From the NCBI GenBank assembly GCA_008632985.1, contig QPGO01000266.1, positions 1 to 64,000 of the forward strand: a stretch of 64,000 nucleotides of DNA, in the 5' to 3' direction. The notes under the pieces were generated by a model, which was not told the origin of the DNA, did no database searches, and saw only the letters and a list, made by a program, of their open reading frames with translations. A program made the translations under genes and the position numbers. Shown here in pieces: positions 1-54,325 of the stretch (position 1 is its first letter; every line of letters begins with the position of its first letter). The DNA is from Psammoneis japonica. Lineage: Eukaryota.

Positions 1-509
1 AACATGCACTTGAACAATGGGACAAGGACCATGTGCTCGAGGTGTGAGCTCAGTATGATCAATGGTCTTGACAAGTGCTTGACTGCCAACTTGAAAATCG
101 TGGGATCGTTGTTTGGCATTTGCTCTGCAGAGATTTGCATTGACAATTGCTTGTCGGTGTTCTTGAACAGCAGCGAGATCCACCAGGACTGGCAGATCTA
201 ATGTCATGTCACAATGAAATGCCATGGCACTGGGTGAAACCTTGAGAGCTTGGGACACCGCGCATCGCATTGCATGCATCGCCATCGCCAAAGCGTTGTC
301 CACCAGTTGGTTGGCTTGCCCGATGTTCTGTGGAGGATAAAGGTGAAGCAAAGTATGCAAGACACCACCAACAGTTTGATGCATGTGTTTGCATGCCACA
401 TTGGCTTGTGGATTCCTGGATGTAGTGGGCACATCTTCCACTCCCACCTGTTGCATCAAAAGTTGAAAGTCTTCTCCAATGAATTCTCCACCATTGTCAT
501 GAATGCAAT
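1..509 (-). pseudogene. Degenerate Ty3/gypsy integrase fragment, cut off by the copia LTR at 510
   Basis: Minus strand reads CIHDNGGEFIGEDFQ...PTTSRNPQANVACKHMHQTVG, matching the gypsy integrase core DNGxEF / NPQAN..ERxH; the frame is broken further on. Confidence 0.8.
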
Positions 510-753
510 TGACAGGATTTGAACAAGATTTTAGTTTATCACACATAATTATGTGTGCTCTTAGTTCCGCACGCATCGCGCGATGTAGTTTGCTTTCGAG
601 CCACAGGCTCACAAGAATAATGACAGTAGCACCGATATCACGACACCAGTCTTTCGGCTCCTGTAACAGTCTCTGCACGGAGACTCATCTGCCATTTAGA
701 CAGCAGTAAGGAGTTATTGTTTTCTTCCACCCAGTCATCTTCATTTTCTGTCA
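510..753 (+). repeat. 5' LTR of copia element 1
   Basis: Direct repeat of 5720-5966; inverted copy at 7916-8160; TG...CA termini. Confidence 0.95.
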
Positions 754-1546
754 GATTAACAGTCTTGCTCTTTATTATCCATTGAGCGTTCATCATCGTC
801 ATCGAGAAATTTTCGACGACGCGCACCGTTGGTGGTGGAAGTACACATCTACCTTCTTCACTGCTGGATGCTGGATTAAATCTACACGTTTGGATTTATC
901 GAATGCCTCCCATCGTTGGATATATTTATTCAACGGATATTTGTTTGGCCAGGAATTCCCGAATTCTCAGACATCCGAGATTCCGGATTCCTTATAGCGG
1001 ATCCTACCAATCCATCCGCTCGCGTTCACGCGCACACGATGTAAACCCCTGACTCTGGCTCTGCTCCACGCATGCCAAGTCTACCGCCTTGTATCTACAC
1101 CAGATTGCTGGTCTTCTACAGTCCTACAAGGTCCACGAGGACAACTGTGAGAGGAAGCAGTTCGTGATTACAGCCTATGTTGGGGCGAGGGTGCATTTCC
1201 CACGTTTGTTCCTCCCTCCACAGCACCAAATTTGGCCGGCCTGATCGGGTTATCCAACCGATATAAAATAAGAACAGTTTGGGGGTCTTGACAGGGTTTT
1301 TTAACCCCCGTTACTCCACTCTCAAGCAACCCAAAGCGTCACCAGCTGCGGGTTCGGATGTGCCGGCACAACTCTACGGACCGGATAGGAAACTTAGCAC
1401 TGAACTACGAACGGGATATCATAGTCCGGCGGTTTCTGACTCTTGGGATAGTTCAAGACATCAAGTCAAGATTCAAGTCAAGTTTCAAGTTATTTTCAAG
1501 ACCACACTCCAATTCTAGCTAGTTCTGACATCCACCTAGTTGCAAC

Positions 1547-4500
1547 ATGGTTCTCACCAGGCAACAACAAATCAATGGCCTCGAGCACATTCTAGGCACT
1601 GTTCTGAATCAAGCCGCAGACAGTCCATTGTGCTCCACCCTCAACATTGATGGAACCGATTCGTATCAGGACCTTTTCACTTTTACTCCGATGCAATTGG
1701 ATGCCCTTGTGTACAACGATGGCACCAATCAAATGCCCTTGCCACGTGGTTACAAAGCACAGATAGCTGCTCTGATTAGCCTGTACACGGTAAAAGCACG
1801 CGGCGGCGCGGATGTTAGCAATGACCCTCAATTGTTCACACAAGAGGAGTTCACCAACTGTCGTCTTAGTCCTGAGTATGTAGTGTCCCTCTCCATGGGT
1901 ACAGCACCATCTGCTCCCACTCCTGGCTCGTTGCCACCCAAACCACTTGATCCCGTGCATGACTTTAAATGAGGCATCAAACGTGACCCGCTTACCTTCG
2001 CGCTTCTCAAGTCTGACAAACAGTGGCACACATGGCACACCTCCACCATCGCACAGGCCCGCTCCCAGGACGTCGCACGCATTCTCGATCTGACGTACAA
2101 GCCCTCTACAGCTGAGGACAAGTCCCTGTTTGCGGAACAACAGAAGCACATGTTCGCCGTATTCGAACGGATCTTGCAGAATGACAAAGGCAAGGCTCTT
2201 GTTCGTCAATATGTCGGCTCCTCTGATGCTCAAGCGGTGTATCCTGACCTCTCCAAGTGTGCCCTTACTTCTACTCGCGCATCCCTGGAGTCCTTGACCC
2301 TTCTCACGTACCTCACCACTGCTCGCCTCGGTGATGGCACCTGGAAAGGATCCACTCATGCCTTCATACTCCACTGGCAGGACCAGCTCCGCAAGTGTGA
2401 AGCTCTTATCCCGGGTACGGACCATTTCTCTGCATGCCAGAAACGTGTCATGCTTGAGCACGCCGTTCATCCTATCGAGGAACTCCGTTTGGTGAAGAAT
2501 CAGGCCGATCAGTTCCACACGCAGAATGGAAAGGGGCCCTCTTATGAAGAGCACTGTGGACTCCTGCTTTCTGCTGCAGCACAGTACGACAGCACGTTCA
2601 CCCCCAAGACGGCTCCTCGCACTCCGCGCCGTGCCATCTATGAACATGACCTGGTCCCTGACGACCCTGATGACGATGTGTTCTTCGACATTGACAGTGA
2701 TGTTGATGTCATCCAAGCTTATGCTGTGCAAACTCGCGGCAATTCCCTCACCAAGGAACAATGGCATCGCATTCCGCCGGACCATCAGCGCATTTGGGAC
2801 ACCTTACCCCAGTCCACTAAGGCCATCATTCTTGGCTCGCGCACCGCCCACACCGGCAACTGCCATGACTCAACAGCGGTCAACCTGCACGACCTCCGCA
2901 TTGGCAGTGATGGCGATGTCAACTTGTCTGCCAACACTCACGATCTTGCGTCAGCCTTCGCACAATCCGACGCTACAGTCGATGCAGCCGATGCTAACCC
3001 CATTCTGGCTCATCTCACCAGGTGCAAGCCTCTGCCACCCGGCGACTTGCAACGTCTCCTGGCACCTGAACGGCCTCCTTCCCCGCCTGTTCTGGCAAGA
3101 AACCGCCCGGATCTGCCCCTTCCGTCCACTCCGACGCGAAGCCCAATGCCACTGACATAGAGATCAATGGCCATAAATGCCGTTGCGTCAACAACCACAA
3201 TGTTGTCTACTCTGCCTCGACCCACAAATCAGCTTGCAAAGGCACTCTGGTGGATCGTGGTGCAAATGGTGGCATCGCCGGTGATGATGTTCGTGTCATT
3301 GCCTGCCCTGGTTGCCAGGTTGACGTCCAAGGCATCGACGATCATCAACTAGTCGACATCCCCATTGTCACTGCCGGTGGTGTCATCCACATGCAACGCG
3401 GCCCTGCCATTGCCATTCTTCACCAGTGTGCCTACACTGGAAAGGGGAAGACGATACACTCTTGTGGCCAGCTCGAGTGGTACAAACACGATGTCAACGA
3501 TCGGTCCATCAAGGTCCCCAACGGTCTACAGCGTATCACCACTGTTGATGGATACGTCATTCCCATTGACATTAAAGCCGGCCTCCCGTACATCGCCATA
3601 CGCCCGCACACCGACGCCAAATGGGACACTCTGCCGCATGTCATTCTCACTGGTGATGACACATGGGATCCATCTGTCCTTGACCACCAGTTCACGGATG
3701 ATGAGACGTGGTATGATGCCATGTCTGACCTCCAAGATGACCCAACTGCCAACCTCTTTGATGAGTTCAGCAACTGTTGCCACCATCATGTCATCAACAA
3801 TGCCATGCTTATGGACTCCCTCCTTGATGACCATGTGCTCCCGATGTCCGATTTCTTCTATGAGTGCAATGAGCACGAGATCAATCCAAAGGATCCCAAT
3901 TTTGAGTCTCTGCACCCTTGTTTTGGCTTTCTCCCAAAGGACACCGTTTGCTGCACTTTTGATTGCACGATGCAATGCACCTGCATGCCAGCCAGCAGGC
4001 AACCTGAAAAAGGCGCACAAGTCGCCCAACCCGGCTCTCAATGTCCACCGATGCAATGAACCCGTCACCACTGACATGGTGCACTCTGACACCCCTGCCG
4101 TTGACTCCGGCTGCACCAGCGCCCAGCTCTTCATTGGCACTGAATCCCTTGTCACGAACGTCTGCGGAACCAAGACCGACAAGGAATTCATCAACACGCT
4201 CGAAGACAACATTCGCAACCGTGGTGCCCTGTCCAAGCTCATCAGTGACCGTGCTCAAGTTGAGATTGGCAACAAGGTTCTCGGCATCCTCTGTGCCCTC
4301 TTCATCTCTAGCTGGCAAAGCGAGCCTCACCAACAGCATCAGAATTTTGCTGAACGCCGCTGCCAAACTGTGAAGACCATGGCCAACACCATCATGGATT
4401 GCTTCAGGTCTACGGCTTGCACCTGGCTGCTCGCCCTGATGTGCGTGTGCTTCATGCTCAACCACACACGGCATCTGCCAAGCTCCACTGGCACACCCCC

Positions 4501-5660
4501 ACAAAGGTGCTGTCTGGCTCTACTCCCGACATCAGCCCGCTCCTCCATTTTCAATGGTGGGAACCCGTGCACTGTCACCTGGATGATTCCGACTGGCCAT
4601 CCGAATCCCGTGAATTATGTGGTCACTTTGTTGGCATAGCTGAACACGTGGGCCACCAAATGACGTTCAAGATTCTTTCTGATGACACTCAGAAGATTCT
4701 CTGCCGTTCCAACGTGCGTTCTGCCCATGATCCGTCTGCTCCAAACCTGTGTTTTTATCCTCCTGATAAGAAATCTGCTGAACCAGTCATTAAATCCTGC
4801 CCCGACTCCAAGGTTTTGCCAAATTCACCAGATGGGGAGGCAATCAGGATGCCCAAAATGCCGGTCTTTGACCCCAAGGATATCATTGGACGCACCTTCC
4901 TCATAAAGCCACAAGAGGATGGACAATGCCACAGAGCCTGCATCATCAAAGCCGTTGAGGACCATGACTGGAAAATTGGAGACAATTTTGAACTGGTCAA
5001 GTTCATTTGCTCTGTGAACAATGATGAACACAAGGAAGTCCTTGCCTGCTGCAACAACATCATGCACCACATCAAGCAAGAAGATGAGGACACCACCCTT
5101 TGGAAGTTCCAATGCATCGCATCACATGAAGAACCATTGCGACCCCATGATCCCTCTTGGAAAGGCTCAAGCTACAACGTCATGCTTGAATGGGAGAATG
5201 GGGAGATCACATCCGAACCCCTTGCCATAATTGCCAAGGACGATCCCGTCACCTGTGCCATTTATGCATGTGAGCACGGCCTCCTTGAAACCAAAGGATG
5301 GAGGCATTTTTGCAAGATGGCCCTGCATCAGAACAAGCTGTTCCGCATGGCCAACCAAGCTAAGTTGCACTCCTTTTGCACTGCGCAATGAGTGCAGGTG
5401 TGAAGTGCCCTGGGACTACAAGCACGCCTTGGCCCTTGGCACTTGATGAGTGCAACGGCAACTGCAAGTGGAGAGATGCAACAGACCTTGAGATGACTCA
5501 GCTTGAGCATGAGGTCTTCCATGACTGCAGACATTACAAGGATTCCAGTGCCCTGTTGGGACACAAGAAGAACCCGGCTGACATCCTCAGCAAGCATTGG
5601 GGTTGCTCCCAAGTCTGGAACCTCCTTCGTCCTCTGATGTTTTGGAACTTCGATCCCAAG
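1547..5660 (+). pseudogene. gag-pol: Copia gag-protease-integrase polyprotein with chromo-like region and RNase H tail; disrupted
   Basis: gag DFK*GIKRDP (TGA at 1970, probably from CGA); protease LVDRGANGG at ~3247; integrase DMVHSD / ISDRAQVE / SEPHQQHQNFAERR; RNase H end NPADILSKHWG; several frameshifts. Confidence 0.9.
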
Positions 5661-5719
5661 GCTTTCAACCAATCTGACTTTGAATCCATCACTGTTGACC
5701 CCTCAAGCAAACTGGGGAG

Positions 5720-5966
5720 TGACAGGATTTGAACAAGATTTCAGTTTGTCACACACAATTATGTGTGCTCTTATTTCCGTGCGGGTCATGTGATGCAGTT
5801 TGCTTTTGAGCCACTCGGCTCACAAGAATGACAACAGCAGTGCCGACATCATGACACCCCAGTCTTTCGGCTCCTGTGACGGTCTCTGCACGGAGACTCA
5901 TCTGCCATTTAGACAGCAGCAAGGAGTCATTGTTTTCTTCCACTCAGTCACCTTCAATTTCTGTCA
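5720..5966 (+). repeat. 3' LTR of copia element 1
   Basis: Preceded by PPT; aligns with 510-753. Confidence 0.95.
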
Positions 5967-7915
5967 GGGCAGAAAAAAACACTTGTTCACAAAAATTGCA
6001 GGAGACAAAGTTGGTTGCGTGTCACTGCACAACACTGGCATGAAGCAAAATAGAGAGCCATGATCAAATGCCTGTTGCCGCGATCAACAATGCCTCAACA
6101 CGTTGCTTCATGTTGCTTCGCATTGTTGCATGGCACTGCTTGCAGGCAAGTCCTTCTACACAGATTGCTGGTGCTCATGCACATGGAGTTTTTAATCAGA
6201 TGAATCGGAAAAAACTGTCAATTGACAATTTTCCCCTGCACAGATGACCACAGCCCAATCGTTAAATGGCAAGAATCAAATTTGAAAAATTTGGCACACA
6301 AAAAGTGGCAGTGTCATTGTTCTTTGTGCATTGCATGCAATGGTGACATTCAAACACAAGTCTGCATTGCATTTGTTAATGACATGAAATGGGTGATTTG
6401 AAAAATTTGACATTCAAAGAGGAGAAGTAAAAAGCAGCCAAACACAATGACGTGCTGGCTGGCGCGATTGGCCTCAGGTGAATGCAGAAAAATAAATCTT
6501 GGGTGCACAACACGATGTTGCCATCCTTTGTTTGTGGAGCATTTGAAATGCGATTCTGAAAGAGACGCACCTTCCATTGTAAAAACTCAATGGTGATGTC
6601 GTTTTTGAAGTTTCAAGAGTGGCGGCATCGGCGTTGTTCAAGGCCAAAACATGGAAAGCAGTTTTCAGAACGATCTGGTGCATTCATGTGCTGCACTTGC
6701 TGTTTGTTCATTTGTGTGCTTGTTGTTTTTCTGGCAGTGTGACACTTGCCATCCATTTTGTTGGATGCTTTGTCATCCAGGTTGACATCATCTGGGATGG
6801 CAACAACGGATTTGCCCCCACTGCTTGACACTGTACAAATGGGAGCTTGACACAGTGCCAATCCACACTCTCTTTGGCAATGGCCCACTGTTTTTCAAGG
6901 CGTGTGTGTGAAAAGCTGCTTTCAATGCAATCCGGTGCGTTCATGGTGTGATTGTGCATTGTTGTTTATGCACTCTTAATGGTGCCGACAGAGCAGTGCT
7001 CACTCTCAATTGCTCAATGTAGTTCATGTTTGACATCGACCAATGCACCCCAAGTGGTCAACACAGCATGAATTGGAGAGTTGAAAACACCCTGTTCTTT
7101 TGCAATTGCCCGGTCATGTGAGTGCAGAGTGCCATCTTGATGTCCTCTCATGATTGCAATCTGGTGAGTGTGGTTCATGTGTTGTGCACTTGTTGTGCTT
7201 CTGGCAGAATGCTGCTCACACTCTCATTGCCTTGGCTGCATCATCAAGGACAACAAGCAGTGGCCAAGGAGCTTGGCATGAATGTGCAAGCAGCTAAACG
7301 GCAATGTTTGCTAACAAACAGCACACAATGATGACAGCGAAATTAACCAGCCAGAACGAATGGTCATTGGATTAGAGACAGGATGTCATTTGAACATCAG
7401 AACAAAATCGGCCTTAAACAAAAAGCAAAGCAGAGTTTGCACATGATGTGAATTAATTTGTTGCATGGTGAAAAGAGGAGTGAACAGAAAGCAATTTATT
7501 ACATGGTGAAAAGTGACCAAGTGTCACACTTGAAAATGTCGGGAACGTCACCCGCATGGACATCACATTTTAACAATTTTCTTGCATGACATGCCAAAAA
7601 TGTTTGCATCAGAACCAAGATTTCCAGCATGGCGTGCAAGAATCTTCAAATTAAAATATTGGCACCTTGGGCAAGAATGCAGTGTGTGCGTTTGCTTGCG
7701 ATGCCAGATTGTTGCCCCAGAGCACCAAACGAGATGGTTCATCTGCAGTGAGCAAGTTTAGACCCCGAAGAGGAGCTGCAAGAGGAGGATTCACTGGTGG
7801 ATGAGGAGTCTTATTGTGCAGACGATGGGGTGGATGCTTGGGAGGTTCTTGGGTGTGGCATCAGAGGCGGGTTTGATGAGGGGGTCAAATTGTTCCATTG
7901 GGTTTTGGCTCCACA

Positions 7916-8530
7916 TGACAGAAATTGAAGATGACTGGGTGGAAGAAAACAATGACTCCTTGCTGCTGTCTAAATGGCAGATGAGTCTCCATGCAGAGAC
8001 CATTGCAGGAGCCAAAAGACTGGTGTCATGATGTTGGCACTGCTGTCATTGTTCTTGTGAGCCATGTGGCTTGAAAGCAAACTGCATCGTGCGGCGCGTG
8101 CAGAACTAAGAGCACACACAATTATGTGTGACAAACTAAAATCTTGTTCAAATTCTGTCACTCCCCAGTTTGCTTGAGGGGTCCACAGCAATGGATTCAA
8201 GGTTAGATTGGTTGAAAGCCTTGGGATCAAAGTTCCAAAACATCAGAGGATGAAGGAGGTTCCAGACCTGGGAGCAGCCCCAGTGCTTGCTAAGAATGTG
8301 TCAGCTGGGTTGCGGGAACCTTCGATGAAATGAAACTTGAGGAAACTGGAGGCAATCACCTCGCGCACATGGTGAAATGTTAGAGCAGTGTGTCACTTGT
8401 GTGTTTTGGAGTGTGGGATGGCAGCACCACCCACAACTGACTTGTTGTCCCCGAACATGCAACACATTTCACGATGCATTGACCACAGCAGTGTCGACAA
8501 TGAACCAAGAGTGGCATGTAAAGAATGACT
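7916..8530 (-). mobile_element. 3' fragment of the same copia family (RNase H end, PPT, 3' LTR 7916-8160)
   Basis: Reverse complement of the LTR and of the region upstream of 5720; minus strand encodes MFGDNKSVV and RNPAD RNase H motifs. Confidence 0.9.
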
Positions 8531-8899
8531 GTGAGAAGATTCTCTTTTGGCAACTGTTGTTTTGAGGCTGCTGTTTGAACTGGATGTGTCTGTTTCCATA
8601 TCTCTCACCAAAGGCCATTCACATTGTTTTGCAGATCAGACCATGATGACAGGAATCAAAGCGCGTGGTTGGTTGGACAGCAAAAATGACAGTCATGCAA
8701 GCGCTTGTTCGAAAATTGAAATTGCTGAGTTACAATGGAATGGCGTCATTCATGGGGCATGGAGTTGCTCTGTCACGGTCTTACAGCTCACTCCATTGGC
8801 TGCGGCATTTGTGGTTTGGGATCTCCAAGTTGATGGCTTTTTCTCTCTTTGGAGTTTTGGAAGAACAAAGAGCAGCAGTGTTGGAAAAAAAGGCACGAG

Positions 8900-9290
8900 T
8901 CATTGAAATTGCTGTGTGAAACATTGTGAGCACTCATTCATTCTGTTTCTTTTTCTGCATCCACTCCCAAAGGATTGGACAGCAATGGTCTTTCTTCTCT
9001 TTGAAGTTTTGGCAGAATAAAGAGCAGCATCATTGGGAAAACAGGCACAAGTGTGTTGCTGGAATTGCTGCACAAAACACATGAGTGCTCATTCATTCTG
9101 TTTCTTTCCTGCTTTTTTTCATCTGCACCCACAGGACACCACAGCTTTTGAGGATGGCAACACTTTTCCTCTTTGGATTCTGGAAGAAGGAGCAGCAGCA
9201 TTGCAAACAAGGCATGAGTGCGTTGTCGCAATTTTGTGCACAAAACACATGAATGCCCACTCACTCTGTTTCTTTTTGTTTGCGCTTGTT
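8900..9290. repeat. Diverged ~160-170 bp tandem repeat (about 2.5 units)
   Basis: CTCA(TTCAT/C)TCTGTTTC core recurs near 8933, 9088 and 9260; AGCAGCAGCATTG and TGCACAAAACACATGA also recur. Confidence 0.65.
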
Positions 9291-10161
9291 TTTGTGGGTG
9301 TGGCGTTGCATCGACATTGTTGTTGGTGGGGCCGGTGCATCGTCTCTTTTTCATTCATTTCCTTCATCACATGTTTCTCTTGACCTGTTCTTGGTGGCGC
9401 TTTGGCAATGGAATGTTTCAAGGGAGAGGCGAAGCTTTGACAGCAACTTGTCGGGGAGTGTAGCTTGATTTTGGGGCAGCTTGTTTGCAAGAGAATTCCT
9501 CGTGTCACAGCTTCCACGGGAAACAAAATGCTCTTGCTGATTTCCACACTGCCTGCCAAAAAAGGTAAGATCCAAGTCTTGGGCGATGTTGCTTTGTTTA
9601 AACTTTTCCCACAATGTTTGTCTCACAGACATTGCTTTCCCTTTCCCAAACATTCCTGCCAAACCACCATTGTGTGCGGCAAACATGCACTGAATGGCTC
9701 CTGCACTCAATTCTTGGTGAGTTGATTGGAGGGAAGCCTTCATGGCATTCCGACAATCAACTCGCAAGATTTTGCACCATCGGCGGGTGACAAATCGGCA
9801 GCAGCCGTTGTTGATTTGCACAACATCTTTTGGACTGCAAACAACTGAATCTTGTGGCATTGGATGCAGTTAAAAATTCATGGCAGTGTTTGTTGATCTG
9901 TGGTGTCCAAAGTTTTAACTCTCATTGGGCATTTGGCAGTGGCAACGCAAAGTTTGTCATTGTCGACAACATGCCAGTTATGCCAAGGTTTGTGGTTTAT
10001 TTTGGATCTTAGCCACCCAGGCGTGCATGCTTTTTGTGCTTCTGCATGGCCACGTCACACGACAAGGCCTGTGGGTTTTCGCACTTTTTCTGCACTCCAT
10101 TTGCAGCACCATCCATGAACTTTAATTGCTCAATGTGTTTGCACATGTTCAATGGACAAAC

Positions 10162-10717
10162 AACGTGTTCCAGCCACAAGTGACCCAAATCATGCACAAA
10201 AAGACATTTGTGCAATTTTTGCACGGTCTCTGACTTGCGAACAAAATTTCACCACCAAAAGCACAGATTTGTGCAAATTTGAATGTTTTGCAACACTGAC
10301 AAGACTCGTGTGAGTGTTGCAATGTAATTGTCATTGTGCCATCTGTGCTTTTCATTGTGACAAATGAGTTGCAACACAATGGATGATTTTCAGCAAAATC
10401 ATTGCCATCATTTGGATGTCAAACTAATGTATTTTCTACAAGCCCTTCTGGCAGGTGTTCCACCTGCAACCAAAAATCTGCATCTAATGCACTGTCACAC
10501 AATCAGTGGTGTTGAGTCTGCAGAGGAAGTTTGTGATGCATGTCCCATGAGAAGTTGAATGCCAACAAAAAAACTGTTTAGATGTTCACACTCCAGACAC
10601 CCATGAAATCCCATCCACCCAAGCATTTTGTGTTCAAACGCCACATGCACCAGAGACACATGATTTGTGTTCAAAATGGATTGTCGTTTTGTGCATCACC
10701 TGGGACTGGAACACATC
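10162..10717. mobile_element. MITE, GACGTGTTCCAG-TIR family, long subfamily
   Basis: Imperfect TIRs AACGTGTTCCAGCCACAAGTGA / TCACCTGGGACTGGAACACATC; 4-bp TSD AAAC; homologous to 53387-53943. Confidence 0.85.
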
Positions 10718-10849
10718 AAACAATGTGTGTGGGCTTGAATTTCTGTGTGTTTTGTTCACGATTGTCAGCTTTATGCTCCTTGCCAAAATTGCCAATTAAA
10801 TCATGAAATGTCAATGTGGAAAGTAGTTGCGGAACCCGCCAAGCAAAAG

Positions 10850-11172
10850 GAAGTCAACACAAGTCAACAAAAATCAACACAAGTCAACAACAGTTAACAA
10901 AAGTCAACAAAAGTCAACACAAGTCAACAACAAGTGCAAAATGTCTGTGGACAAACTGACAGTCTCACACCTTGCTTGCCTGCAGCCCCCTGTGATAAAT
11001 GTCATGAACGCAGACAGCTTTGCACGGGCACCACACACACTCGACCAGGCAGAGTCAACAAAAGTCAACAAAAGTCAACATGAGTTGGCACAAGTCATCA
11101 CAAGTCAAGACAAGTCAACAAAAGTCAACATGAGTCAACAACAGTCATCACAAGTCAACATGAGTCAACATG
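10850..11172. repeat. Two blocks of a 10-bp minisatellite (AAGTCAACAM)
   Basis: aagtcaacac/aagtcaacaa units at 10851-10932 and 11053-11172. Confidence 0.9.
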
Positions 11173-12476
11173 CTTGAGCAAAAAGCATTTGCATTTACTC
11201 ACGACTCAGTCTGTTCAATGATCATTGTCATGGACAAAGTTTGTGCAAGATGTTTGGCGAGTGAACAAGACTGAATTCAATGGTCATCTGTTAAATGGAA
11301 ATCATCAATTTGCCCATTGAGATTTGAAATTCATGTGTTCAAGACTGCATCAACAAAATTTGTGGATGGCGCAGTGACTTGCAACTGTCATTCCCAACTG
11401 AGAATTGTTCACGTTGGCATGCATCTCAAAGGGAACATTTTAAAATTTTGGTGTGAGACAACAACATGCTTTTTGATGTGATGCGCTCCATGTTATTGGA
11501 GAATTTTCATTCCGCACTTGTCCTTTTGCCGTTTGACCTTTGTTGAGGTGAATTTGGCTGGCAATGTGCAGGAGATCATTGAGGCCACATGTCTTGACAA
11601 TGGCATCACATGTCAACAAGATGTTGCAATGTTCTTTGCATTTTTCTCAGTGTTGCGATTATCTGAATCGCCTCCATTTTCTTTGCAATTGGATGTGTGC
11701 CATTGCGTGTGGAAGTCTTGACAGTTTGTTTCAAGTTGAGCAGCGAAGGACTTTTTGTTGTTGACCTTCAAAGCAACTGTTCTAGTTGTGTGAATGCCAT
11801 TTCAAGCTTTTCTTGCACAGGTGACATTTTGAAGTCACTTATTGTCAGGCATGAACGATCATTTGCAGTCATTCCGACAACTCCAAACCTATCATGAGCT
11901 TGCTCATGTGTTGCATGAAAATGTCTGGGGCTCCACAGATTCTCATTGGAAGTTGACAGCACTCATTTTCTCCCCACGGCATCATTTTCGTGTGAGCACG
12001 ATGTGTGCTTTTTTTATTTGACATGGTGGCATTCCATGTTTGAATCAAATAGATCACACACATGAAACGTTCTTGCTTCAACAGCATTTCCTGAATATTG
12101 GGTAAGGGATGCACCACGTGTATGAACCTTTTACCAAGCTTCTGAGTGTCGGATGCGGTCAAACTTGACCTGTTTTCTTTAGACAATGAGTCTCAGAGCG
12201 ACTTATTCAGAGTAATTTCATTTTTAAGACTTCAATCTTTCATAATAGGTCAAATTGCTTTTGATTGGATGCCTCCAAAGACAATGACACGAGAAGGTTC
12301 TCACGTGTCGTGGAATTGCGTCAGATTTTTCACAATGAGATCCGCTGGTTCTTCCCACACATTCATCTGAGGAACTTTTCAAAAAGATTTCAACCTCCTA
12401 AGAAGAAGATTGAGTTGGTTGTATTCATTTGGGTTAGATGCATCGCCGTAGTTGTCACTTGATTAGAATCGATGGC

Positions 12477-12866
12477 GACGGGTTCCAGTCCTAGGTGGGA
12501 CTCCATGTGACATTGGGCCCGTAGAATTCTACGTGCGAGCTCCGTAGTACGAGAATTTAATTAATGGATATATTTATCTTCAACATCAAATAAACGGCCA
12601 AGTTTGTGGTACAATTATGCCTCTTGCCACTCGACGTTTTTGCAAATGCGCCTGCCCTACGCGATTCTTAAGACATTATAGAATCGCGCTGTAACAAAAA
12701 ATGTCAAAAGTTGTTGGACGGATCGCTCAATAAGTGTACCGTAAAATGACACAAAATATCGAAAAAATCACGTAGAAATCTACGTGCGCGACATACGACG
12801 TGATTCAAAAAACTATCGATGTCACAGTTCAGCAGTACGAGGTCCCACCTAGACCTGGAACTCGTC
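12477..12866. mobile_element. MITE, GACG.GTTCCAG-TIR family, short subfamily, inserted in gypsy pol
   Basis: TIRs GACGGGTTCCAGTCCTAGGTGGGAC / GTCCCACCTAGACCTGGAACTCGTC; TSD TGGC; empty site visible in the paralogous gypsy copy near 17930. Confidence 0.92.
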
Positions 12867-14711
12867 TGGCATGATAATGTGAGTCGAGGACCATTGGTTC
12901 CGTTATTAACTCTATTCACGGTGTTGTGTTTTTCAATGTGATCGGTTTTCAGCTGGAAAACATCGGCGTCGAAGAGTGTATCAACATTCTTCATAGGGTA
13001 ATTGCTTCTTCCCATTTGATTTCTTCATTTGCGTAGTCCTATATGATTCCAAGACTGGACATTAAGTCGCGTCCCATGATCATATCATTTGAACTTGAAG
13101 AAGATTTTGTGTTGTCAACATGTGCTATTTGAATGTCAGTAAGTGTTAAATTCGCATAGTGAGAACTGAATTTGGTGTTTACTATCAGTCGTAAAGAGCT
13201 CACCCTTGGTTTCCCAAGTTTTTGGTGGCGGATTTCTTCATTCTCGAGTTCCGCATGAATTTGCGCAAAATTATGGGTCGACGATGTTCTTTATCGAGAA
13301 GAACGCGTTGAAGCTTATTTTTTTGCTTTTCTCAGAGACGTAGTCACATAAACCATGACAACAGGACTAGCAAAACATACTATGATGCTTTTTCTGGATT
13401 GCCAGATGTCCTGTATCGAGTTATGCTCCTCGAGAGTATGAATTTTTGATCGGAATCGATCGGGTCAATTTTTCCAAATTGATAGTTTTATTCACTAAGC
13501 GTTTTAGAGTCGTAATTTTTGCTCTTATTTTTTCGTTCCTTTGCCGAGGAACTCATTTTAAATGTTATTGTGAACTGCCTAGTCAATTGTGGAGTTCAAT
13601 TCCTCTTTCACAGAGGTATTTCTGCCATCGTCACGTGACCGTGTGCGATTGCTATTAGAGTATCATATTTTTTGGGTCTCTTTTAGAGCCACCCTTGCAC
13701 TCTTTTGCTCTTTTTCTTTGTTCAAGGAACTCGCTTTGAGTGTCTTTTTCTTGAACCGTCTGATCAATTATGACGTTCAACTCTTTTTTGCGAGCGGCAT
13801 TTTCGTTATCGCGACGCGACCACGTGCGATTGCCATTTGAACGGCGCCGTTTTGGATTACTTTCATATTTTCCATGGCGTTCTTTGGCTAGCCTTTTAGA
13901 ATAGCTCAAATCCGTGATGTAGATGTTCTTTTATCAAAGACTGCACCTTTTATTCACTTTGGATTGTTCAGGTACCATATAGGACACCATTTTCGGAACC
14001 AAACTTGGAATCATTTTGGTTTTGGAGCTAACCTTGCTATCAGAGTCTGATTTGATATTTCTTGTGTTACGGACGTCTTCAACCACCTCCAAACGTTCCA
14101 GAACTCAATCAGCTCATCAATGGTATGTTCCAATAGTTCAGTATTTTGGATAGTAGGCTGATGCTGCCATCCTTGTGGTGCGAGTGATAGCTGATAGCTC
14201 AGCACTCGGTTTCCCGCTAGATTCGACTTAGAATCAATTGAAGGTTGTATAGACGCTCTTCATTGACCTCTTGGGTCTAGCAGAGGCTTTCTTGCTGTTA
14301 AGCTGCTCTGGTTTCTTCAGATCGTCTCGAAAATAATAATTCTGATTCTGAAGTGCATTTCCTCGGAAGACATGAGTCAAGAGACGCTTGAAATACTTTT
14401 CAATGGTTCCTTCTTGCTCTTTGGACTCGAGGCTCGTTGATTCGGTCTCTAAAAACTCTGCAATAGTCTCTCCTTGCATAGCAGATGTATTTCTCGGACC
14501 TGATTGACTCGTGACCTGAAATTCTATCCAACCATTACTTGGTGTAGATTTTTTGATAATGCGGTGTACTTGTAGAGTCCTTGATCCTGAGGTACTTGAA
14601 ATGGCTCGTATTAGAACAAATCCTCTTGTCTTGAAGACGAAAAATAGGGTTCCATCTTGAGGTGCTGCTCGGATTGAGCTGCTTCCACTTGGAAATCGAT
14701 TCCAGCAGAAC

Positions 14712-15178
14712 TGATGCATTTCACCCTGCTCATGGAAGAATTTACAAAGGCACATTAGTTAAAATTTTCATTTTCCGTGTTTTTACCTTCTGTGGTGTGT
14801 ATACACAATGCACTATGCTCGAGGAACGAGTGTAAACAAAAGTAGAATGAAGTACGAAAAGTGGAAATTATGAAATTAAATTTTACTCCGTGATTTTTGG
14901 TTTCTCCGAACGAGTTCTCAATGGCCTAAAGCTTCTGTACTGCTTCTACAGACAAAAGGCCTTTCGGAGAATATAATCGTGACAACAGATTGTCCGGATA
15001 CGATTGCTGTTGACACGTAAGATGCTCAACATCGTCAATCGATCGTATTTGCAATTTTCGACATCCGATCTACTCTGTGTGATCATTCTGTCCTTTGTAC
15101 GCATCCACGACTGTGGTACGATTGACATATAAATAATGTGTATAATTATAAATATGGATGTAACAGTCGAATACTGCA
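14712..15178 (-). repeat. Gypsy LTR (~467 bp)
   Basis: Highly similar to 46803-47263 and, inverted, to 50206-50577; TG...CA ends. Confidence 0.88.
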
Positions 15179-15575
15179 CATGGATGCAAACAACATGCTC
15201 CTGGAGACCAGAGCTGTGATCTGTCAGACATGATGTCAGTGGACAGAATGTTTCATCACGTGGATGGAACAAGTTGGCTAAGACACACAAACATTCGTGA
15301 CACAGAAAACATGATGGTTTGTGTGTTTTGAGGTCTGTTGTTTGACTGCACACATTTGTGTGACCAAAATACGTTGTCTCAAACTGCTCAGACACTGCAC
15401 ATGTGGATGCATGTCTGTTGGAAATTATTGCTTAGGGGTGACCTCACCTGCTCACGAGTTCGCTGAGTAGAAACCGCCAAATCGGCACGAGAACCACACA
15501 TTTTTCTCACTTTCCTCCACTCACACAAGTGGATGCTCATGCATCGAAAGAAACGTGAACAACTGTTGACACACC

Positions 15576-17010
15576 ATGGCCACTGCCACAGCCTTTGCTG
15601 CTTGTCTTACGCATTGTGGATACAATGCGCAGATGCGCACCCACACAGCCGGTCAAGGCTTTGCTGCTGTCCAGGACCTGGAACAGGTCCCTTTAGCAGA
15701 AATCACCACAATGACTGAGGGTGTTATGAAGAGCATGGACACCGCCGCCAACCCTCAAGTCTGCTTCCCATGCCTGGCGAATCGCAAGTTCAAGGCCCTG
15801 CATGCATGGATTGACTGCCGCAGAGCCCGGAATCAACAGCCAACTCCTGCTCTCTTTGCTGGTGACATTGTTGGGACATGGATGGCACGTCTCATGGAAT
15901 TGGAACAATTCAAGTCAGCAGATTCGGACGACGACTCAGCGACCAAGATGGCCGTGGAACTCAAGAATCTACATGACTGGCCTGCCTTCCAAGAGTTGCT
16001 GGAGACTGAACTGTGCCACCACTGCAGTGCTGTTGCTGGAGTGCCCCTTGTCTGCCTCATCAGGGAGCATGAAGAAGTCACCACCGAACTGCTGCCCGAC
16101 TTGCAGGAGCACAGCACACACAGGATGGGCAATGCCTGCATGATCTCCTGAAGAAGTCAGTGATGGGCATCAGAAGGCCCACAACGACTTGTCAGAGCTA
16201 GATGAGCCAGTGGCCGAGACTAAGAAGGTCTCTGACTTTCTCTCAAGGGTGTCTCCAACCCTGGGTTGGAGACAGGCAAGAGTGCAGTGGACGGTGATCC
16301 GGCAAAGCTAGCAGATTTCAAAGCATGCCAGCAGCACATGAAGACTCTGGTGGAGAATGCTGAGAACCGCAATGCCGACACTTGCAGAATGGCATCCGTC
16401 CAATGCCGCAACAACCAGCGCCAAAACCCTGGCGGCAAGCACCCACCCAAGAAGGACAAGCCCATGATCCGGGCAGGCCATTGTCCTGTTGATGTGAGTG
16501 GAATGCTTTCGATGGTCCTGAGCAGGAGCAAGTTAAAAAGCTCTGCAAAGCCAACAAAGCCAAGAAGAAACACAAAGCAGCAGCTGCATCTTTGGCGGCT
16601 GAGTTGGCCGATGCGAACACTTGTGCTGTCAAAAGGGTGGCCATTGCTGAGCCTGAACCTGCTGACGAACAGAAGGACTCCGAAGAGTCGGAAAAGAAGC
16701 CTGCTGCCAATGCAGGCACACAGTTCAGATGTGGTGCCCACAAGAAACCTCAAAAAGAGGAATGAACAGTTGCGCCAGCACCAAAAGGCACAGAGCCAAC
16801 TGTCACTGCACCTGCTGGCACTGTGCATTTATCTGGGCAATTCTTAAAGAACACACATGTCTCTTTGTCATCTGCTGGACATTCAGAAGGTGAGGCAACC
16901 AATGACTTTGACTCACGTGCTGATGCGTGTGCTGTTGGGTCCAATTTTGTAATGTGCTCTGATGTTGACCGCACTGTTGCAGCACATCCTTGCTCCGAAG
17001 AGCATGCAGG
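15576..17010 (+). pseudogene. Copia-like gag-protease remnant of a different family
   Basis: gag-like GVPLVCLIRE; protease FDSRADACAVGSNF (LDSHADTC type); frameshifted and TpA-depleted. Confidence 0.7.
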
Positions 17011-17044
17011 AGATCGTTGAGACTAGAGATCGTTGAGACTACAT

Positions 17045-18797
17045 GTCTCAATAGTAGCAACGTATAACAACGAGATGTCGTAAGGTTGTTTACGTTTTTT
17101 TCAGTGTTGCGATTGCCTGAATCGCCTCCATTTTTTTTTGTAATCAAATGCATGTCGTTACGCATGGAAGTCTTGACAGTTTCTTTCAAGTTTTAAACAG
17201 TGAAGGACTTTTTGTTGTTAACCTTTTAAGTGACTGTTCTAGTCGTATAATGCCGTTTCAAGCTTTTCTTGTGCAGGTGACATTTTTGAAGTCACTTTTT
17301 GTCAGGCACAAACGATCATACACAGTCCTTCTGACAACTTCAAACCTGCTATGAGTTCACTCATGTTTTGTACAAAAATATCTGGGGCGCTATAGCTTCT
17401 CATCGGAAGTCCATAGCACTTATTTTCTCCCCACGGCATGATTTTCGTGTTGGCACGACATGTGCTTTTTTAATTTGATGTGACAGTGTCCCACATTCAA
17501 ATCAAGTAAGGTCGCATGTGTGAAACCTTCTGGTTTCTAAAGCATGTTCTGAACATTTGGCAGAGGACATGGCACACGTGCTGGCCTCTCACTCAGTTCA
17601 CGAACGTCGGACAGAAACCAAGCTCAACCATTTTTCTATTTTTTTTTGGTTGAACAAAGGTTGGAGCTGTCCATTCAGAATGGTTTGTTTTCCTTTGGGA
17701 CCTTCAGCTTGCAGAGCCTTTTGACCTCCTTGCAAGTTGCCTCCAAGGCTTGTGGAACAGGAAACATTTTGCGTGATGCGGTTTTGCGCCAGATTTTGCT
17801 GCAAGGTTTTCTGGTCCACTTGACTGGAGAACCTTCGAAAAGAGATTCAAATCTTTTCAAAGGGAAGATCAAGTGCTTCTTCTCTTCTGGAGTCTGATGA
17901 GTTGCCGCAGCTGTCACATTGTTGAGATTGGTAGCATGACAATGTGAGTTGAGGACCATTGGTTCTGTCATTGACTCCATTCACGGCATCATGTTTTTCA
18001 ATGTGATCTGCATTCAGCTGGAAAACATCAGCATCGAAAAGTGGATCAACATTCTTCATAGATGCAGTTGCTTCTTCCTCTTTGATATCTTCATTTGCAC
18101 AGTCCAATGTGATGCCAAGACTGGACATTAAGTCATGTCTCATGATCATGTCATGTGGACTTGCAGAAGATTGGGTGATGTCAACATGTGGCGATGCATT
18201 TGTCATCACATGGTTGTCAAATTCAGGCAAAGAGAACTGTGTTGATCAGTGACTGTCAGTCGTGAAGAATCCACCCTTGGTTTCCCAAGTTTTGGTGGCG
18301 GATTTCTTCATTCTCAACTTCCACATGACTTTGCGCAAATTTGTGGATGACAATGTTCTTTGTCAAAAAGAACGGCGTTGAAGCCTGTTTTTGCTTTTCT
18401 CAGAGAAGCAGTCATGTAAACCGCAACAACAGGACCAGCGCAACATGCCATGATGCGTTTTCTGGGTTGCCAGATGCCATGTGACAAGTCATGCTCTTCG
18501 AGTGGCATGAATTTTTTGTCTGAGTCGATCGGGTCAATTTTTCCAAATTGATGGTTTTGTTCACCAAGCGTTTTAGAGTCACAATTTTTGCTCTCATTTT
18601 TTTGTTCCTTTGCCAAGGAACTCACTTAAATTGTTTTTGTGAACTGCCTGGGTCACTGTGGCATTCAACTCCTCTTTCACAGAGGCATTTCTGCTGTCAT
18701 CACGCGACCGCGTGTTATTGCCATTAGAGTGTCATGTGTTTTGGTCTCTTTCAGAGCCACTCTTGTGCTCTTTTGCCAACCTCTTTTTGGAATGGCT
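17045..18797 (-). mobile_element. Second partial copy of the gypsy element (PR-RT region)
   Basis: Colinear with ~11600-13720 but lacks the MITE at 12477. Confidence 0.85.
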
Positions 18798-18801
18798 TTA
18801 A

Positions 18802-19350: not shown

Positions 19351-21041
19351 CTGTGTAAGCCCCATGGCGGAAGCTGTCCTTTTCAGCCTGTTTCCACCGT
19401 CGAGTGTACTGAAAGGTTCGGCATGTCTCAAGAAATTGTGCTTGGTTTGAAAGAGTGATGTGGCAGTTCGCATATGATGGAGGGACTGACGTAATATATT
19501 TAACGAAAAAGTCGTGGTGAGCATTTGGTGAGCATCTCCGTGGTGAGGAATTAGTACTTCTCTCCCACGTTTCTGCCGTGGAAGAGATTTTGGCATGTGG
19601 GAAGAATGAAAGAGGTGGCTGCCAGAGGCGGCCCAGAAGAATAAACTGAAAAGGAGAAAAGGAGAAGAGAGAGAGGAAAAGAAGGAAAAAGGAGAAAAAG
19701 AGAAGACATTGTGGGGCTGTCAACTTGCGGCCCTTGGCTGGGCTTCTGCCTGCAAAGCAGCTTGTCTGTGACTTGAGGTGCTGTGGTTTTGCATGCTTGA
19801 CAGCAAAGCTCCCACAGCATGCTGGAGAACTGTGGAGTTGTGCCAGTCTGTGGCAGCTTGACAGTGGCATCTTTTGTGAGGAGTGTTTTGCTGCCAGCCC
19901 ATCATGGCTTTTTGGGCAGCTTGTTTTCCAAGCCTTGCCCTGCCAGTCTGGCGGCCACTGCTGTGGATTTGTGTCTTCTTTGTTCTCCAAAATTCAATGC
20001 ACACTTTGGCGGGTTTGGCCCCACTGTGTTCAAACAATTCTCTGAAGTTTCCAAGTGAGAAAACGCAGCATCATCCTCTTCAAAAGATCTTCACAAAGAT
20101 CTCTGGCAACAAGCACTGGCCTTCCCCACCCATGCTGTCAGAAATGCCTGCCTTGACAAATTTACAGCATCACTCCCAAAGCATCTGTGGATGCTGCACC
20201 CAAATTTTGGCCTCATGTGTCACAAAATCTTGAGAGAATTTGCGAGATCCACCCCGCCACGCACCGCCACCTTTGGATTTCCAGTGCAGCCACGGCTTCT
20301 GCAGCAGGCTGTTAACAAACATGCAAAGCAAGTTCCCACTGGGACCTCAAATTGACCTGCAGCCTTCTTCATTCCGGCTGCACCCCTGCTTGAATTCTGG
20401 GTGGCCAGCTGAGCAAAACCTGGCTCTGTCTGTGTTTCTCAGTCCATGTTTCTGGCTTTGTCACATGTGGTGCAAAGTGCCCTCAGGAAAATGCTTGTGG
20501 TTGTGCTTGCCCAATGCTGTCCCATCAGCCAGTGCCTTGTGGTGCAGCCCAGTGCTTCTTTGCTTGCCAGCTCTCCACTGCAAGCTCGTCCTTGTGGCTG
20601 GTCTGGTGTCTTCAAAAAGCAAACCACACACCCCATTCTTGCCCAAAGAGGGGGGGCAATCAGACCAATGCACATGCCTGAAAGACACCCTGTGTCATCA
20701 GGAGGTTCCACGATGAAAACGAGTGAGACGAATGAACAACACCACATCAGCTGCAACGTGTAAAGTGGGAGCGAGATTTGGCGAGCGGTTTTCTGTTGTC
20801 TTGGTTGTTGCGAGTGTTGCGCGAAGCCTTGTTGATGTCGAATCTACGCCACAACATACTGACTTTGTACGCCACAAGACTTCAAAAATTTATTGCTTTT
20901 GTACTGGGTCTACGCCACTGGGCGCATGTAGAATATCATATAAAAATCATGCACGCCACTGTGGTACAAAATTTGTGTACACCCTGAACCATTCTACGCC
21001 ACTAGTGGCGTAGGCTCTGGTGTGTTTTTTATACTTCTGAC

Positions 21042-50004: not shown

Positions 50005-51112
50005 TATATATAGAGCGTGAGACAAACCATGACACTCTCGAAAGACATTTGGAAATTGAAACGGCCCTATGCTGGCCTATATAAAACAACAACAGTCATT
50101 GCTAATGGCACAATGCAGTTAACGTGGAGACATTATTGACAATGTCAATGTCCATCGAATTATTCCACTTAACAAATAACTCTAAGGTGCAATTAGGGAG
50201 GCGAATGCAGCATGCGACTGTTATATCCATATTTATAATTATGTGTTATTTATATGTCAATCGTACAGTGCCACAGTCGTGGATGCGTACAAAGGACAGA
50301 ACGATCACACAGAGTTGATTGGATGTCAAAAATTGCAAATACGATCGATTGACGATGTTGACATCTTACATGTCAACAGCAATCGTATCCGGACAATCTG
50401 TTGTCACGATTATATTCCCCGAAAGGCCTTTTGTCTGTAGAAGCAGTACAGAAGCTTTAGGCCATTGAGAACTCGTTCGGAGAAACCAAAAATCATGGAG
50501 TAAAATTTAATCTCATAATTTCCACTTTTCGTACTTCATTCTACTTTCGTTTACACTCGTTCCTCGAGCATAGTGCACATGAATGTTGATGTGCACAAAG
50601 GACTCAGCGATTGCGTGAGCAACCATAGGACCAACATGGCACTTGCCGCAAAAATCGATCAATCGCAATGACACCATCGCACCGTTTGCAATGCCCATTC
50701 CAGGCGATGAACATCACAGCATGTTGGCTCTGACAAAGTGAACAAATGCTGCCATGACAGCTGAGAATTGGGCACAAGACAAGACAGAGTGTTGAACAGC
50801 ATCAACAGGTTCTAGAATTGTAGGATGTTGCACCACTGGGACCACCAATTAAGCGACAGTGGGCCAATCACCAATGGCACATAAACTGCCTGTGTTCGTG
50901 ACAGTGTGCCAGCATTTGTTCACATTCCTGTCACATGCAAAGTGTCTCAAGATTTTTTTGCCTTTTCTGCATCTTCTGCCAAAGTCAGATGTTCTTCCAC
51001 TGAGGGAAAAAGTGATGCAGCTTTCAGATTGAAACTCAAGCTGCCGTCGTTGGCAGGGGCGCTTGTTTGTTCCACAGATTCTGGTGCTGGAGTTCTGTGG
51101 CAATGCTTTCTG

Positions 51113-51497
51113 GATGGGTTCCAGTCCCAGGTGGGGGACTTTTTGTGACATTGGGCCCGCAGAATTCCACGTGCAAGCTCCGCAGTGAAATTGTTGAGCA
51201 ATGGATGTGTCAATCATCGCCAACAGAAAAAGAGGCAATTTTGCGAATGCATCTCCTCCTTCACACTTGAAGCACATTCTTTGCAGCATGTCCGGGTGCA
51301 TTCTTCACCACCCAGTGCATTTTTATTGTCATAAATGCAGATGACAGAAAGCCTTTGGCTTCGCAAAACAGGCAGTGTGGAACAATTTTTTACAACAGAA
51401 CATGCAGAAATGTGCGCGCGAAACATGTGATGGATGATAAAAAACAATCATGTCACAGTTCAGCAGTGCGAGGTCCCACCCAGAGCTGGAATGCATC
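51113..51497. mobile_element. MITE, short subfamily (TpA-eroded copy of 12477-12866)
   Basis: TIRs GATGGGTTCCAGTCCCAGGTGGG / CCCACCCAGAGCTGGAATGCATC; TSD TCTG. Confidence 0.88.
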
Positions 51498-52134
51498 TCT
51501 GCTCTTGCCTCTAAAAAAACCTTTGATGATTCTGACAAACCAGCTGACGTCAGTCTTTTGTCAGATTCATTGCCAGGTGGCTCCACCTGTTGTTCTCCAG
51601 CGGTGTCATTGTCTGTGGCAACTGGTGTTTGTTCTGCGAGCGTTTCTGGCATGGGTGAAATTGATCACGGCAGTTTTGCAGCTCCAACAGCTGCTTGCGC
51701 ATGCTTTTCATGAATGGCAGCCTTTTGCTCATTCAACACACAAATCCTTTGTTCACACATGTCTTTCTCCCATCGTGGGAACTTGACCCAGCAGCGGCTC
51801 TTCTCGATCTTCTGCTCAGCGGCACCCATTTTGACGAAAGCTCAGACCTTCCAAAAAATGTTGTTCCAATTAGCATCACAATGCACTGAGAATGTGACGT
51901 GGCATCTCATGTCCATTGCATTCCAAATCAAGTGATCGAACAATCAAAAGGATGATTTTGGGATAAACAAGCATGATTTGCCACTCTTGGGTCATGCCAC
52001 ACTTTGGAGCCGCATTTTGTGTGCTTCTGTGAGTGTTGCTTTTCAACCGTGGTGCAATCAATGAATCCAACATGTTTCATAAAATCTAAAACATGAGCAC
52101 GCACTTGAATGCTGTTGGATCATGTGTGCAAGGT

Positions 52135-53943: not shown

Positions 53944-54325
53944 TGATTCAGTGTGCTCAGAGCACTTGCACCAGTTGGAGAAAACCACAAAGAACACCAG
54001 CTGGGAAAAAGCGGGTTCATTTCTGCTTCAAGAAACTTTTTTTTCTCCTCTGCTCCTCTCCTGTGCAGGGTCCTTCCCCAAGAGCCTGAGAAAGTTTTTT
54101 GTTCAGTTCTGAGCCCAGTGGAAAGCACTGCTTGGTGAGTTCCATCTCAACTTGGCAGCTTTTTGTTCTTTGCATTTTTGCAAAAGGAAGTCTGACCCAC
54201 CCGCCGGACGTGGCGGCCCAATTTTTAATTTTGACTGACAACATCAACTCCAGCTTGTTCAAGAAAGTTTTCACTTCTAAAATGCACCATCAGTTGAGCC
54301 ATGAGCACCTCAGAAGGCAAGGCTG

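Follow-up and report, generated by a model that had tools for sequence, protein, structure and literature searches.

The locus

The window analysed here is a 64,000-nucleotide stretch of DNA from Psammoneis japonica (GenBank assembly GCA_008632985.1, contig QPGO01000266.1, positions 1 to 64,000 of the forward strand), and the whole of it is a nest of mobile elements. The analysis centres on a long terminal repeat (LTR) retrotransposon at 510-5967 and on the repeats around it, in which the dinucleotide TpA has almost vanished from some copies and been retained in others.

The element is flanked by direct repeats of ~245 bp (510-754 and 5720-5967) with TG..CA ends, and its three overlapping internal frames align to residues 1 to ~1400 and ~1860 to 1900 of ~1900-aa polyproteins. 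No Pfam family was matched at E 0.01 by the open reading frames (ORFs) of the element. The full-length homologous polyproteins carry the copia-type reverse transcriptase (RT) domain RVT_2, and the LTRs and polyprotein order of the element match these homologs. Judged by this homology, it is best described as an LTR retrotransposon of copia-like type from which the RT/RNase H part has been lost. A matching target-site duplication was absent (flanks GCAAT versus GGGCA), and the only named relatives of the copia proteins of the window were two diatom proteins with 38-45% identity. The 5' LTR adjoins an older integrase-like fragment of another element, and the switch from TpA-depleted to TpA-normal DNA occurs no more than ~20 bp from the LTR start. 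Downstream, conserved Tyr positions read Cys or His from 2396 onward, and a second, inverted copy of the same family (7916-8665), which supplies a third LTR, reads Cys at two of two conserved Tyr positions.

A mosaic of depleted and normal blocks

Across the whole window, the ratio of observed to expected dinucleotides (o/e) was 0.41 for TA, 1.43-1.45 for CA and TG, and 0.69 for CG. These averages conceal two states: expressed as a share of pyrimidine-purine (YpR) steps (fTA, and fCG for CG), TA made up either ~2-5% or ~20-26% of the steps in 500-bp bins, which is near-bimodal. A two-state segmentation placed 29.6 kb (~46% of the window; 285 TA in 7231 steps, fTA 0.039) in a depleted and 34.3 kb (1534 TA in 8353 steps, fTA 0.184) in a normal state. 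The eight clearest depleted blocks showed o/e values of 0.13 for TA, 0.40 for CG, 1.70 for CA and 1.74 for TG, compared to 0.64, 0.91, 1.27 and 1.21 in the normal segments.

Borders between the states coincided with the ends of repeat copies within a few bases (border/copy end: 15175/15178, 17024/17026, 50574/50577 and 12093/12102). The largest depleted block, 50574-59154, has as its left border the end of the normal copy 50206-50577, while the block 3601-12093 takes in the element's 3' half, a low-copy spacer, the inverted second copy and additional repeats. One repeat has three TpA-normal copies with 90-94% identity (minus strand; 14707-15178, 46798-47263 and 50206-50577), which look like recent insertions and act as an internal control, and two of them adjoin depleted DNA exactly at their ends. 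These three copies differed from one another by 2-9 transversions in 373-473 bp and were not depleted, while the 3' LTR region and the third copy, separated by a similar 4 transversions in 398 bp, were in the opposite, depleted state.

A side effect was seen in the reading frames. With TAA and TAG almost eliminated, depleted blocks (e.g., 54000-59000) are open over long distances on either strand, often in several frames simultaneously, and most of the 127 stop-to-stop ORFs of at least 110 aa in the window are probably spurious.

Repeat copies differ by directional loss of TpA

An earlier reading made from the letters of the DNA and their translated ORFs (hereafter the sequence-only reading) had counted about 10 TpA sites of the 5' LTR that are CpA or TpG in the 3' LTR, none in the opposite direction, and 3 that are shared. 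Aligning the LTR pair with MAFFT returned the same figures (10 sites, 0 reverse and 3 shared; binomial p=0.002). The 5-6 CpG losses it had proposed between the LTRs were largely recovered, with CG found only in the 5' LTR at 5 sites, but 1 site had CG only in the 3' LTR. The LTRs differed by 25 transitions and 4 transversions.

The same bias had been proposed for two further pairs, and it was found in both. The first, a short repeat labelled as a miniature inverted-repeat transposable element (MITE), showed TpA losses of 9:0, and the second, labelled as gypsy, 35:0 (p=6e-11). The two labels themselves remained without a Pfam match for the ORFs there. A Pfam search with 62 ORFs (6.6-21 kb and 51-61 kb, including depleted blocks and the 'gypsy' pair) gave nothing informative, and a sub-threshold match to Sfi1 among them was disregarded. 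A pair not listed in the sequence-only reading, 17026-17560 versus 11572-12102, gave a ratio of 19:3.

Context rates come from six oriented pairs taken together, the 5' LTR entering twice. T>C changes per T amounted to 84/220 = 0.38 at TpA versus 13/285 at TpC and 18/392 at TpT (0.046 each), which bears out the specificity for TpA. TpA is the most changeable context here, above CpG with its C>T rate of 46/166 = 0.28. The products were 43 CA and 34 TG, intermixed along each copy, and runs of one product type, as would mark strand coordination, were absent along the compared copies; both strands are affected about equally. Double differences, with CA in one copy facing TG in the other, were frequent (7 to 23 per pair).

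These features bear on whether the changes might have been made in RNA, by A-to-I editing at UA in transposon transcripts that were then reverse transcribed and inserted. Such a route would suit the copy-specific state and the fact that the best-studied copies are LTR retroelements, and ADAR- and ADAT-type editing prefers a 5' U. Editing of transcripts before reverse transcription nevertheless does not fit: CA and TG products, and likewise Tyr to Cys and Tyr to His changes, occur side by side, short non-coding repeats and the low-copy spacer are hit as well, one depleted block covers fragments in both orientations, and the two LTRs of one element differ. I consider editing before integration highly improbable.

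Protein conservation gives the direction of change

Protein conservation was used for polarity because pair comparisons cannot give it. Window codons were aligned by tblastn to 140 fetched homologs of at least 1200 residues, and the count took in codons with 15 or more aligned homologs and agreement among no fewer than 80% of these. Across element positions 2001-5690, 338 of 400 conserved codons were unchanged. Conserved Tyr was kept at 7 of 18 positions (7 changed to Cys, 3 to His and 1 to Phe) as opposed to 331 of 382 for the other conserved residues (Fisher p=7e-6). Conserved His (10/10) and Cys (2/2) were kept throughout, and no change from His or Cys to Tyr occurred at the conserved codons of the element. 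Changes that resolved to one base numbered 52, comprising 21 C>T at CpG, 12 T>C at TpA and 0 C>T at CpA.

The claims that TpA is the ancestral state, giving rise to CpA or TpG, and that neither fungal repeat-induced point mutation (RIP) nor deamination of 5-methylcytosine (5mC) accounts for this are thus upheld by the 10/18 Tyr positions changed to Cys or His, with none changed the other way, and by the 0/52 polarised changes of C>T at CpA. As judged from the aligned homologs, TpA is the substrate and not the product, and RIP-type and non-CpG cytosine deamination are for that reason excluded as the cause of the asymmetry. Two of the motifs singled out in the sequence-only reading, HQCAYTG (codon 3427, TGT) and ERRCQT (codon 4442, TGC), indeed replace a conserved Tyr, found in 96% and 95% of the aligned homologs, respectively. 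HTDD is equally real, all 35 homologs having Tyr there, but it is part of another element (38.5-41.8 kb), while HEDN is weak, the homologs having Y 14, F 6 and H 3 times at this position.

Opposite polarity, in which a RIP-like process or non-CpG 5mC deamination (CpA>TpA) made the TpA of the TA-rich copies, finds an argument in simple parsimony with the third LTR copy, by which the 5' LTR would have gained TpA at 6 of the 10 sites that differ between the LTRs. The missing C>T at CpA and the missing His>Tyr and Cys>Tyr changes contradict it. Moreover, TA-rich copies reach a TA o/e of only ~0.6, like relatives elsewhere, blocks with a TA o/e of 0.03-0.13 are possible by loss only, and the CA-versus-TG double differences fit independent loss from one ancestral dinucleotide. 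For practical purposes, opposite polarity is already refuted, and I give it next to no weight.

The third copy also informs on the history of the element. At 6/6 sites with TA only in the 5' LTR, the product in the 3' LTR is identical to that in the third copy (p ~0.016 if losses were independent, own calculation), which no more than suggests a shared ancestry of these two. Separate insertion histories are suggested by the shared products together with the absent target-site duplication: the 5' 1.9 kb in the normal state (532-2417) and the remainder of the element may not share one insertion, making the element possibly chimeric, and recombination or conversion with a younger copy could explain this.

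CpG decay and environmental relatives

CpG decay accompanies TpA loss but is separable from it, because the stretch 2418-3430 and a metagenome contig (L053) have lost TpA yet kept CpG. This contig of 2759 bp is copia-like with ~69% DNA identity to the element of the window. Its conserved Tyr positions read Cys or His at 15 of 27, with one stop in the best alignment, and of 38 resolved single-step changes, 26 were T>C at TpA and 3 were at CpG (CpG o/e 0.76). TA o/e ranged from 0.31 to 1.07 in 79 related metagenome loci, and because their median was 0.70 (versus 0.13 in depleted blocks of the window), the copia-like family does not appear to be TA-poor by nature.

Five other metagenome relatives had low CpG o/e values of 0.22-0.25 along with TA o/e of 0.41-0.52. 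Two of these (L030 and L078) showed almost no Tyr loss and three (L003, L007 and L009) were outside the top 30 loci by Tyr loss; all five may be methylated copies in another host and make a helpful contrast to L053 and the window.

Assembly check

Logan contigs of one sequencing run (X1; depth ~37-43), which may be the assembly's own data, matched the depleted stretches 4-499, 5921-7143 and 10686-11543 with 0 differences. This was the only sequencing run found (0.55 of sampled words), and no RNA run was listed. At 80% likeness, 17,662 contigs were placed on 1-20000, and the summary of their differences, taken without context (T>C 720, A>G 631, C>T 545 and G>A 522), decides nothing.

A sequencing or assembly artefact, e.g., systematic miscalls at modified bases, would have to account for exact agreement with these separately built contigs, whose weight is reduced by their possible origin in the assembly data, for borders that coincide with transposon ends, and for the same signature in L053, an unrelated metagenome contig. 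The latter two are the better arguments, and the probability of an artefact is negligible.

Other features of the window

The features are listed in Table 1. Between the two parts of the second copia-like element, at 24.3-38.5 kb, lies the longest uninterrupted frame of the window (1411 aa, 33726-37958, minus strand), for which neither a Pfam family nor a homolog among proteins of 776-2470 residues was found. A tandem array at 48504-49544 matched itself at offsets of ~180, 350, 530 and 700 bp, giving a unit of ~180 bp with 71-82% identity, and a scaffold gap of 226 N occupies 29562-29787. Rfam and tRNA scans of the window returned 0 matches each.

Table 1. Positions of elements, repeat copies and TpA-depleted blocks in the 64-kb window
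Feature	Position	Strand	Remarks
Older integrase-like fragment of another element	3..525	-	TpA-depleted; read from translation, no Pfam match
5' LTR, copia-like element	510..754	+	TG..CA ends; TpA-normal, 13 TpA
Internal region, gag-protease-integrase-chromo-like polyprotein remnants in three frames	1547..5690	+	Homolog residues ~1400-1860 (RT/RNase H) missing
Depleted stretch inside the element, CpG normal	2418..3430	.	fTA 0.048, fCG 0.238
Large depleted block	3601..12093	.	TA 4.2%, CG 8.8% of YpR steps
3' LTR	5720..5967	+	TpA-depleted, 3 TpA remaining
Second copy of the same family, 3' end: LTR 7916-8160 and pol C-terminus (last 500 bp)	7916..8665	-	TpA-depleted; inverted; third LTR copy
Short repeat, TpA-normal	12477..12606	+	Partner 51113-51243 depleted (9:0)
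TpA-normal repeat copy	12869..13708	+	Partner 17934-18776 depleted (35:0)
Depleted block	15175..17019	.	Left border is the end of normal copy 14707-15178
TpA-normal copy inside depleted DNA	17026..17560	+	Partner 11572-12102 depleted (19:3); borders 17024 and 17539 fit the copy ends
TpA-depleted repeat copy	17934..18776	+	Partner of 12869-13708
Depleted block	19566..20840	.	fTA 0.014
Second copia-like element, mostly TpA-normal	23039-24319 and 38461-41839		Split by ~14 kb (24.3-38.5 kb)
RT YxDD motif of the second copia-like element, invariant Tyr replaced by His (CAC)	40717..40719	+	35 homologs
Largest, most extreme depleted block	50574..59154	.	fTA 0.028, fCG 0.064; TA o/e down to 0.03-0.07 per kb
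Depleted block	59533..60806	.	From the segmentation

Comparison with known systems

A direct precedent for TpA hypermutation is the chlorarachniophyte Bigelowiella natans, in whose mutation-accumulation lines it has been described (Mettrop et al., bioRxiv 10.64898/2026.01.13.699255). According to this preprint, two integrated viral regions mutate ~1000x faster than the remaining genome, 230 of the 231 mutations in these regions are A>G or T>C with all GC-biased ones on TpA, the mutations occur in some lines only, and the genome carries TpA-poor, CpA+TpG-rich clusters enriched in RT and DDE domains. Its authors propose an ADAT2-like deamination of adenine in DNA, a hypothesis they left unassayed, and their discussion adds that ADAR favours a 5' U (bioRxiv 10.64898/2026.01.13.699255). 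The sequence-only reading had known of no characterised mechanism, which still holds for the enzyme, while the phenomenon itself has been measured in B. natans (bioRxiv 10.64898/2026.01.13.699255).

I applied the preprint's cut-offs for TpA-poor windows, with the Rho formula as I understood it, to the present window. The cut-offs were passed by 23 of 64 1-kb windows, with clusters at 3001-12000 (9 kb) and 51001-59000 (8 kb). On every tested feature, the sequence of the locus fits what a process of the B. natans type would leave. Both cases have in common that only TpA is affected, with CpA or TpG as product depending on strand and counter to the usual GC>AT bias, and that TpA-poor, CpA+TpG-rich clusters build up in the long term. 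In B. natans, the process is confined to blocks of foreign or mobile DNA, and here the blocks alternate with normal transposon copies. The cases differ in that de novo mutations were seen there and the evidence here is comparative; in that giant-virus and virophage inserts are affected there as opposed to LTR retrotransposons, short repeats and their surroundings here; and in degree, with a Rho of 0.45 in the nucleocytoplasmic large DNA virus (NCLDV) region of B. natans and near-saturation at a TA o/e of 0.13 in the present blocks. CpG decay runs alongside here and goes unmentioned in the main text there, as far as accessible, and the lineage may differ, the relatives of the copia proteins here being diatom proteins.

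Fungal RIP resembles the present pattern in that a single dinucleotide of mobile DNA is heavily mutated on either strand, the borders are sharp, and frames and catalytic residues are destroyed. RIP is, however, C>T at CpA and makes TpA, whereas TpA is destroyed here (TA o/e 0.13, with 0/52 C>T at CpA); strand-coordinated runs are missing here, and a pair may include a copy without mutations. In B. natans an insert present once was targeted, so the trigger may be something other than duplication. Deamination of 5mC at CpG is found in the same blocks (CpG o/e 0.40 versus 0.91), makes up 21 of the 52 polarised changes and also feeds CpA and TpG, but it cannot remove TpA and is separable, as L053 and 2418-3430 illustrate. 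ADAR and APOBEC share the deaminase-type signature at one dinucleotide and the inactivation of invading elements; they act on RNA or single-stranded replication intermediates with a bias for one strand, whereas here both strands, repeats other than retroelements, and flanking DNA are affected.

Many diatoms carry DNMT4, which is related to the fungal RIP factor RID and is of unknown function (PMC9998398); the present data hold nothing that links it to the TpA process. Searches of the literature on diatom transposable elements, RIP and 5-hydroxymethyluracil turned up no report of a TpA process beyond the B. natans preprint.

Discussion

The feature described by the sequence-only reading is real and directional; its essentials had been read correctly, and the observation is stronger than was seen then. 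The direction of change, its specificity for TpA, the symmetry of the strands, and the mosaic with borders at repeat-copy ends are shown by the data. I consider it probable that they result from a locus- or copy-directed, TpA-specific A:T>G:C hypermutation at the DNA level, of the B. natans kind. Such a process would turn TpA into CpA or TpG on either strand, approaching saturation in some mobile-element copies and blocks and leaving same-family copies elsewhere nearly untouched, and ordinary CpG decay would run beside it as a separable process. It would presumably belong with the TpA-only hypermutation that integrated foreign DNA undergoes in B. natans, as an activity, either episodic or directed at certain loci, against invading DNA that has been silenced. 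The likeliest chemistry would be enzymatic deamination of adenine in DNA (A to inosine, read as G), for which an ADAT2/TadA-like deaminase is a candidate class; the A that ADAT2 and TadA naturally target in tRNA also follows U.

Several observations weigh against a directed process or limit what can be drawn from it. Depleted blocks are usually CpG-poor too (Spearman 0.55, 128 bins), and age or chromatin state could be a common driver of both losses. The two LTRs may not be true sisters and are then a shaky clock, which weakens the use of the LTR pair but not the phenomenon itself. The X1 contigs, as possibly the assembly's own data, give no independent support. ORF inspection and Pfam found no recognisable host gene within the window, nor does it offer clearly unique neutral DNA to set beside the repeats, and the repeat-targeting put forward by the sequence-only reading is thus no more than a candidate feature. 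Among surviving TpA, TTAA and CTAA/TTAG were over-represented and RTAY rare, but the 3'-neighbour rule this suggested (TAY > TAG > TAA) failed to predict the strand affected (33 for, 23 against, 28 ties; p=0.23), with a hint for TAC only (25 edited versus 11 spared). Finally, adenine deamination and a modified or oxidised thymine would look the same at the level of sequence.

The remaining points of this kind are those expected of a genome-wide, context-dependent neutral bias, under which depleted DNA is simply old, normal DNA is recently inserted and nothing is targeted. The normal copies themselves have a mild TpA excess (9/52 transitions versus 1/65 at TpT, 2/53 at TpC and 1/46 at TpG, by majority polarisation), so graded or continuous activity may fit as well as episodic activity. 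The low-copy spacer 5967-7915 is as TpA-depleted as the repeats (its summed contig depth is 141-178 versus ~37 for a single-copy contig), the normal segments are also low at a TA o/e of 0.64, and borders at repeat-copy ends are expected of nested younger insertions. A bias of this kind does not readily produce a 10:0 difference between the LTRs of one element, several-fold different TpA loss at similar transversion divergence, or a near-bimodal fTA (0.02-0.05 versus 0.2-0.26), and it sits poorly with the >1000-fold rate contrast between targeted DNA and the remaining genome in B. natans. I regard it as unlikely.

A targeted process might alternatively place the lesion on thymine, if an enzyme such as a TET/JBP-type dioxygenase oxidised or otherwise modified the T of TpA (for instance to 5-hydroxymethyl- or 5-formyluracil) and the altered base paired with G during replication. 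In favour of this, both strands behave alike, and T>C equals A>G on the other strand. Hydroxymethyluracil of dinoflagellates lies preferentially at TpA and TpC, which would suit such a lesion, and the depleted blocks overlap CpG-decayed, presumably methylated and silenced DNA. TpC, on the other hand, showed no T>C excess (0.046), and as far as it was accessible, the literature on 5-hydroxymethyluracil and diatoms yielded dinoflagellate papers only. A thymine lesion is the chief alternative on the chemical side but quite improbable, and adenine deamination is the chemistry I prefer. The dinoflagellate spliced-leader motif, looked for with hydroxymethyluracil in mind, had 0 matches in the window at up to 3 mismatches.

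Directed hypermutation of invading DNA is known from RIP in fungi and from APOBEC and ADAR editing in animals, all of which, to my knowledge, either deaminate cytosine or act on RNA. Removal of TpA from both strands of DNA has a single report so far, the 2026 B. natans preprint, which identifies no enzyme. New here are LTR retrotransposons and short repeats as targets, a loss near saturation, and the close neighbourhood of affected and unaffected copies from the same family. Protein conservation proves the polarity, CpG decay coexists with the TpA process while being separable from it, and L053 adds an independent environmental case with a pure signature, which suggests a wider distribution of the process.

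There are consequences for annotation as well. Depleted blocks lose TAA and TAG stops and fill with long spurious ORFs, and they lose detectable homology as Tyr, and probably other residues whose codons contain TA, are replaced; gene callers and repeat annotators will therefore misread them.

For the biology of these genomes, the tentative implication, which I put forward as somewhat less likely to be right than wrong in its full extent, is that TpA hypermutation may not be peculiar to one chlorarachniophyte but serve as a genome defence in another lineage as well, probably a diatom-like one, and in one or more further environmental organisms (the source of L053). Single copies of LTR retrotransposons and other repeats would be its targets, each losing nearly all of its TpA, independently of cytosine methylation and by way of a putative DNA adenine deaminase.

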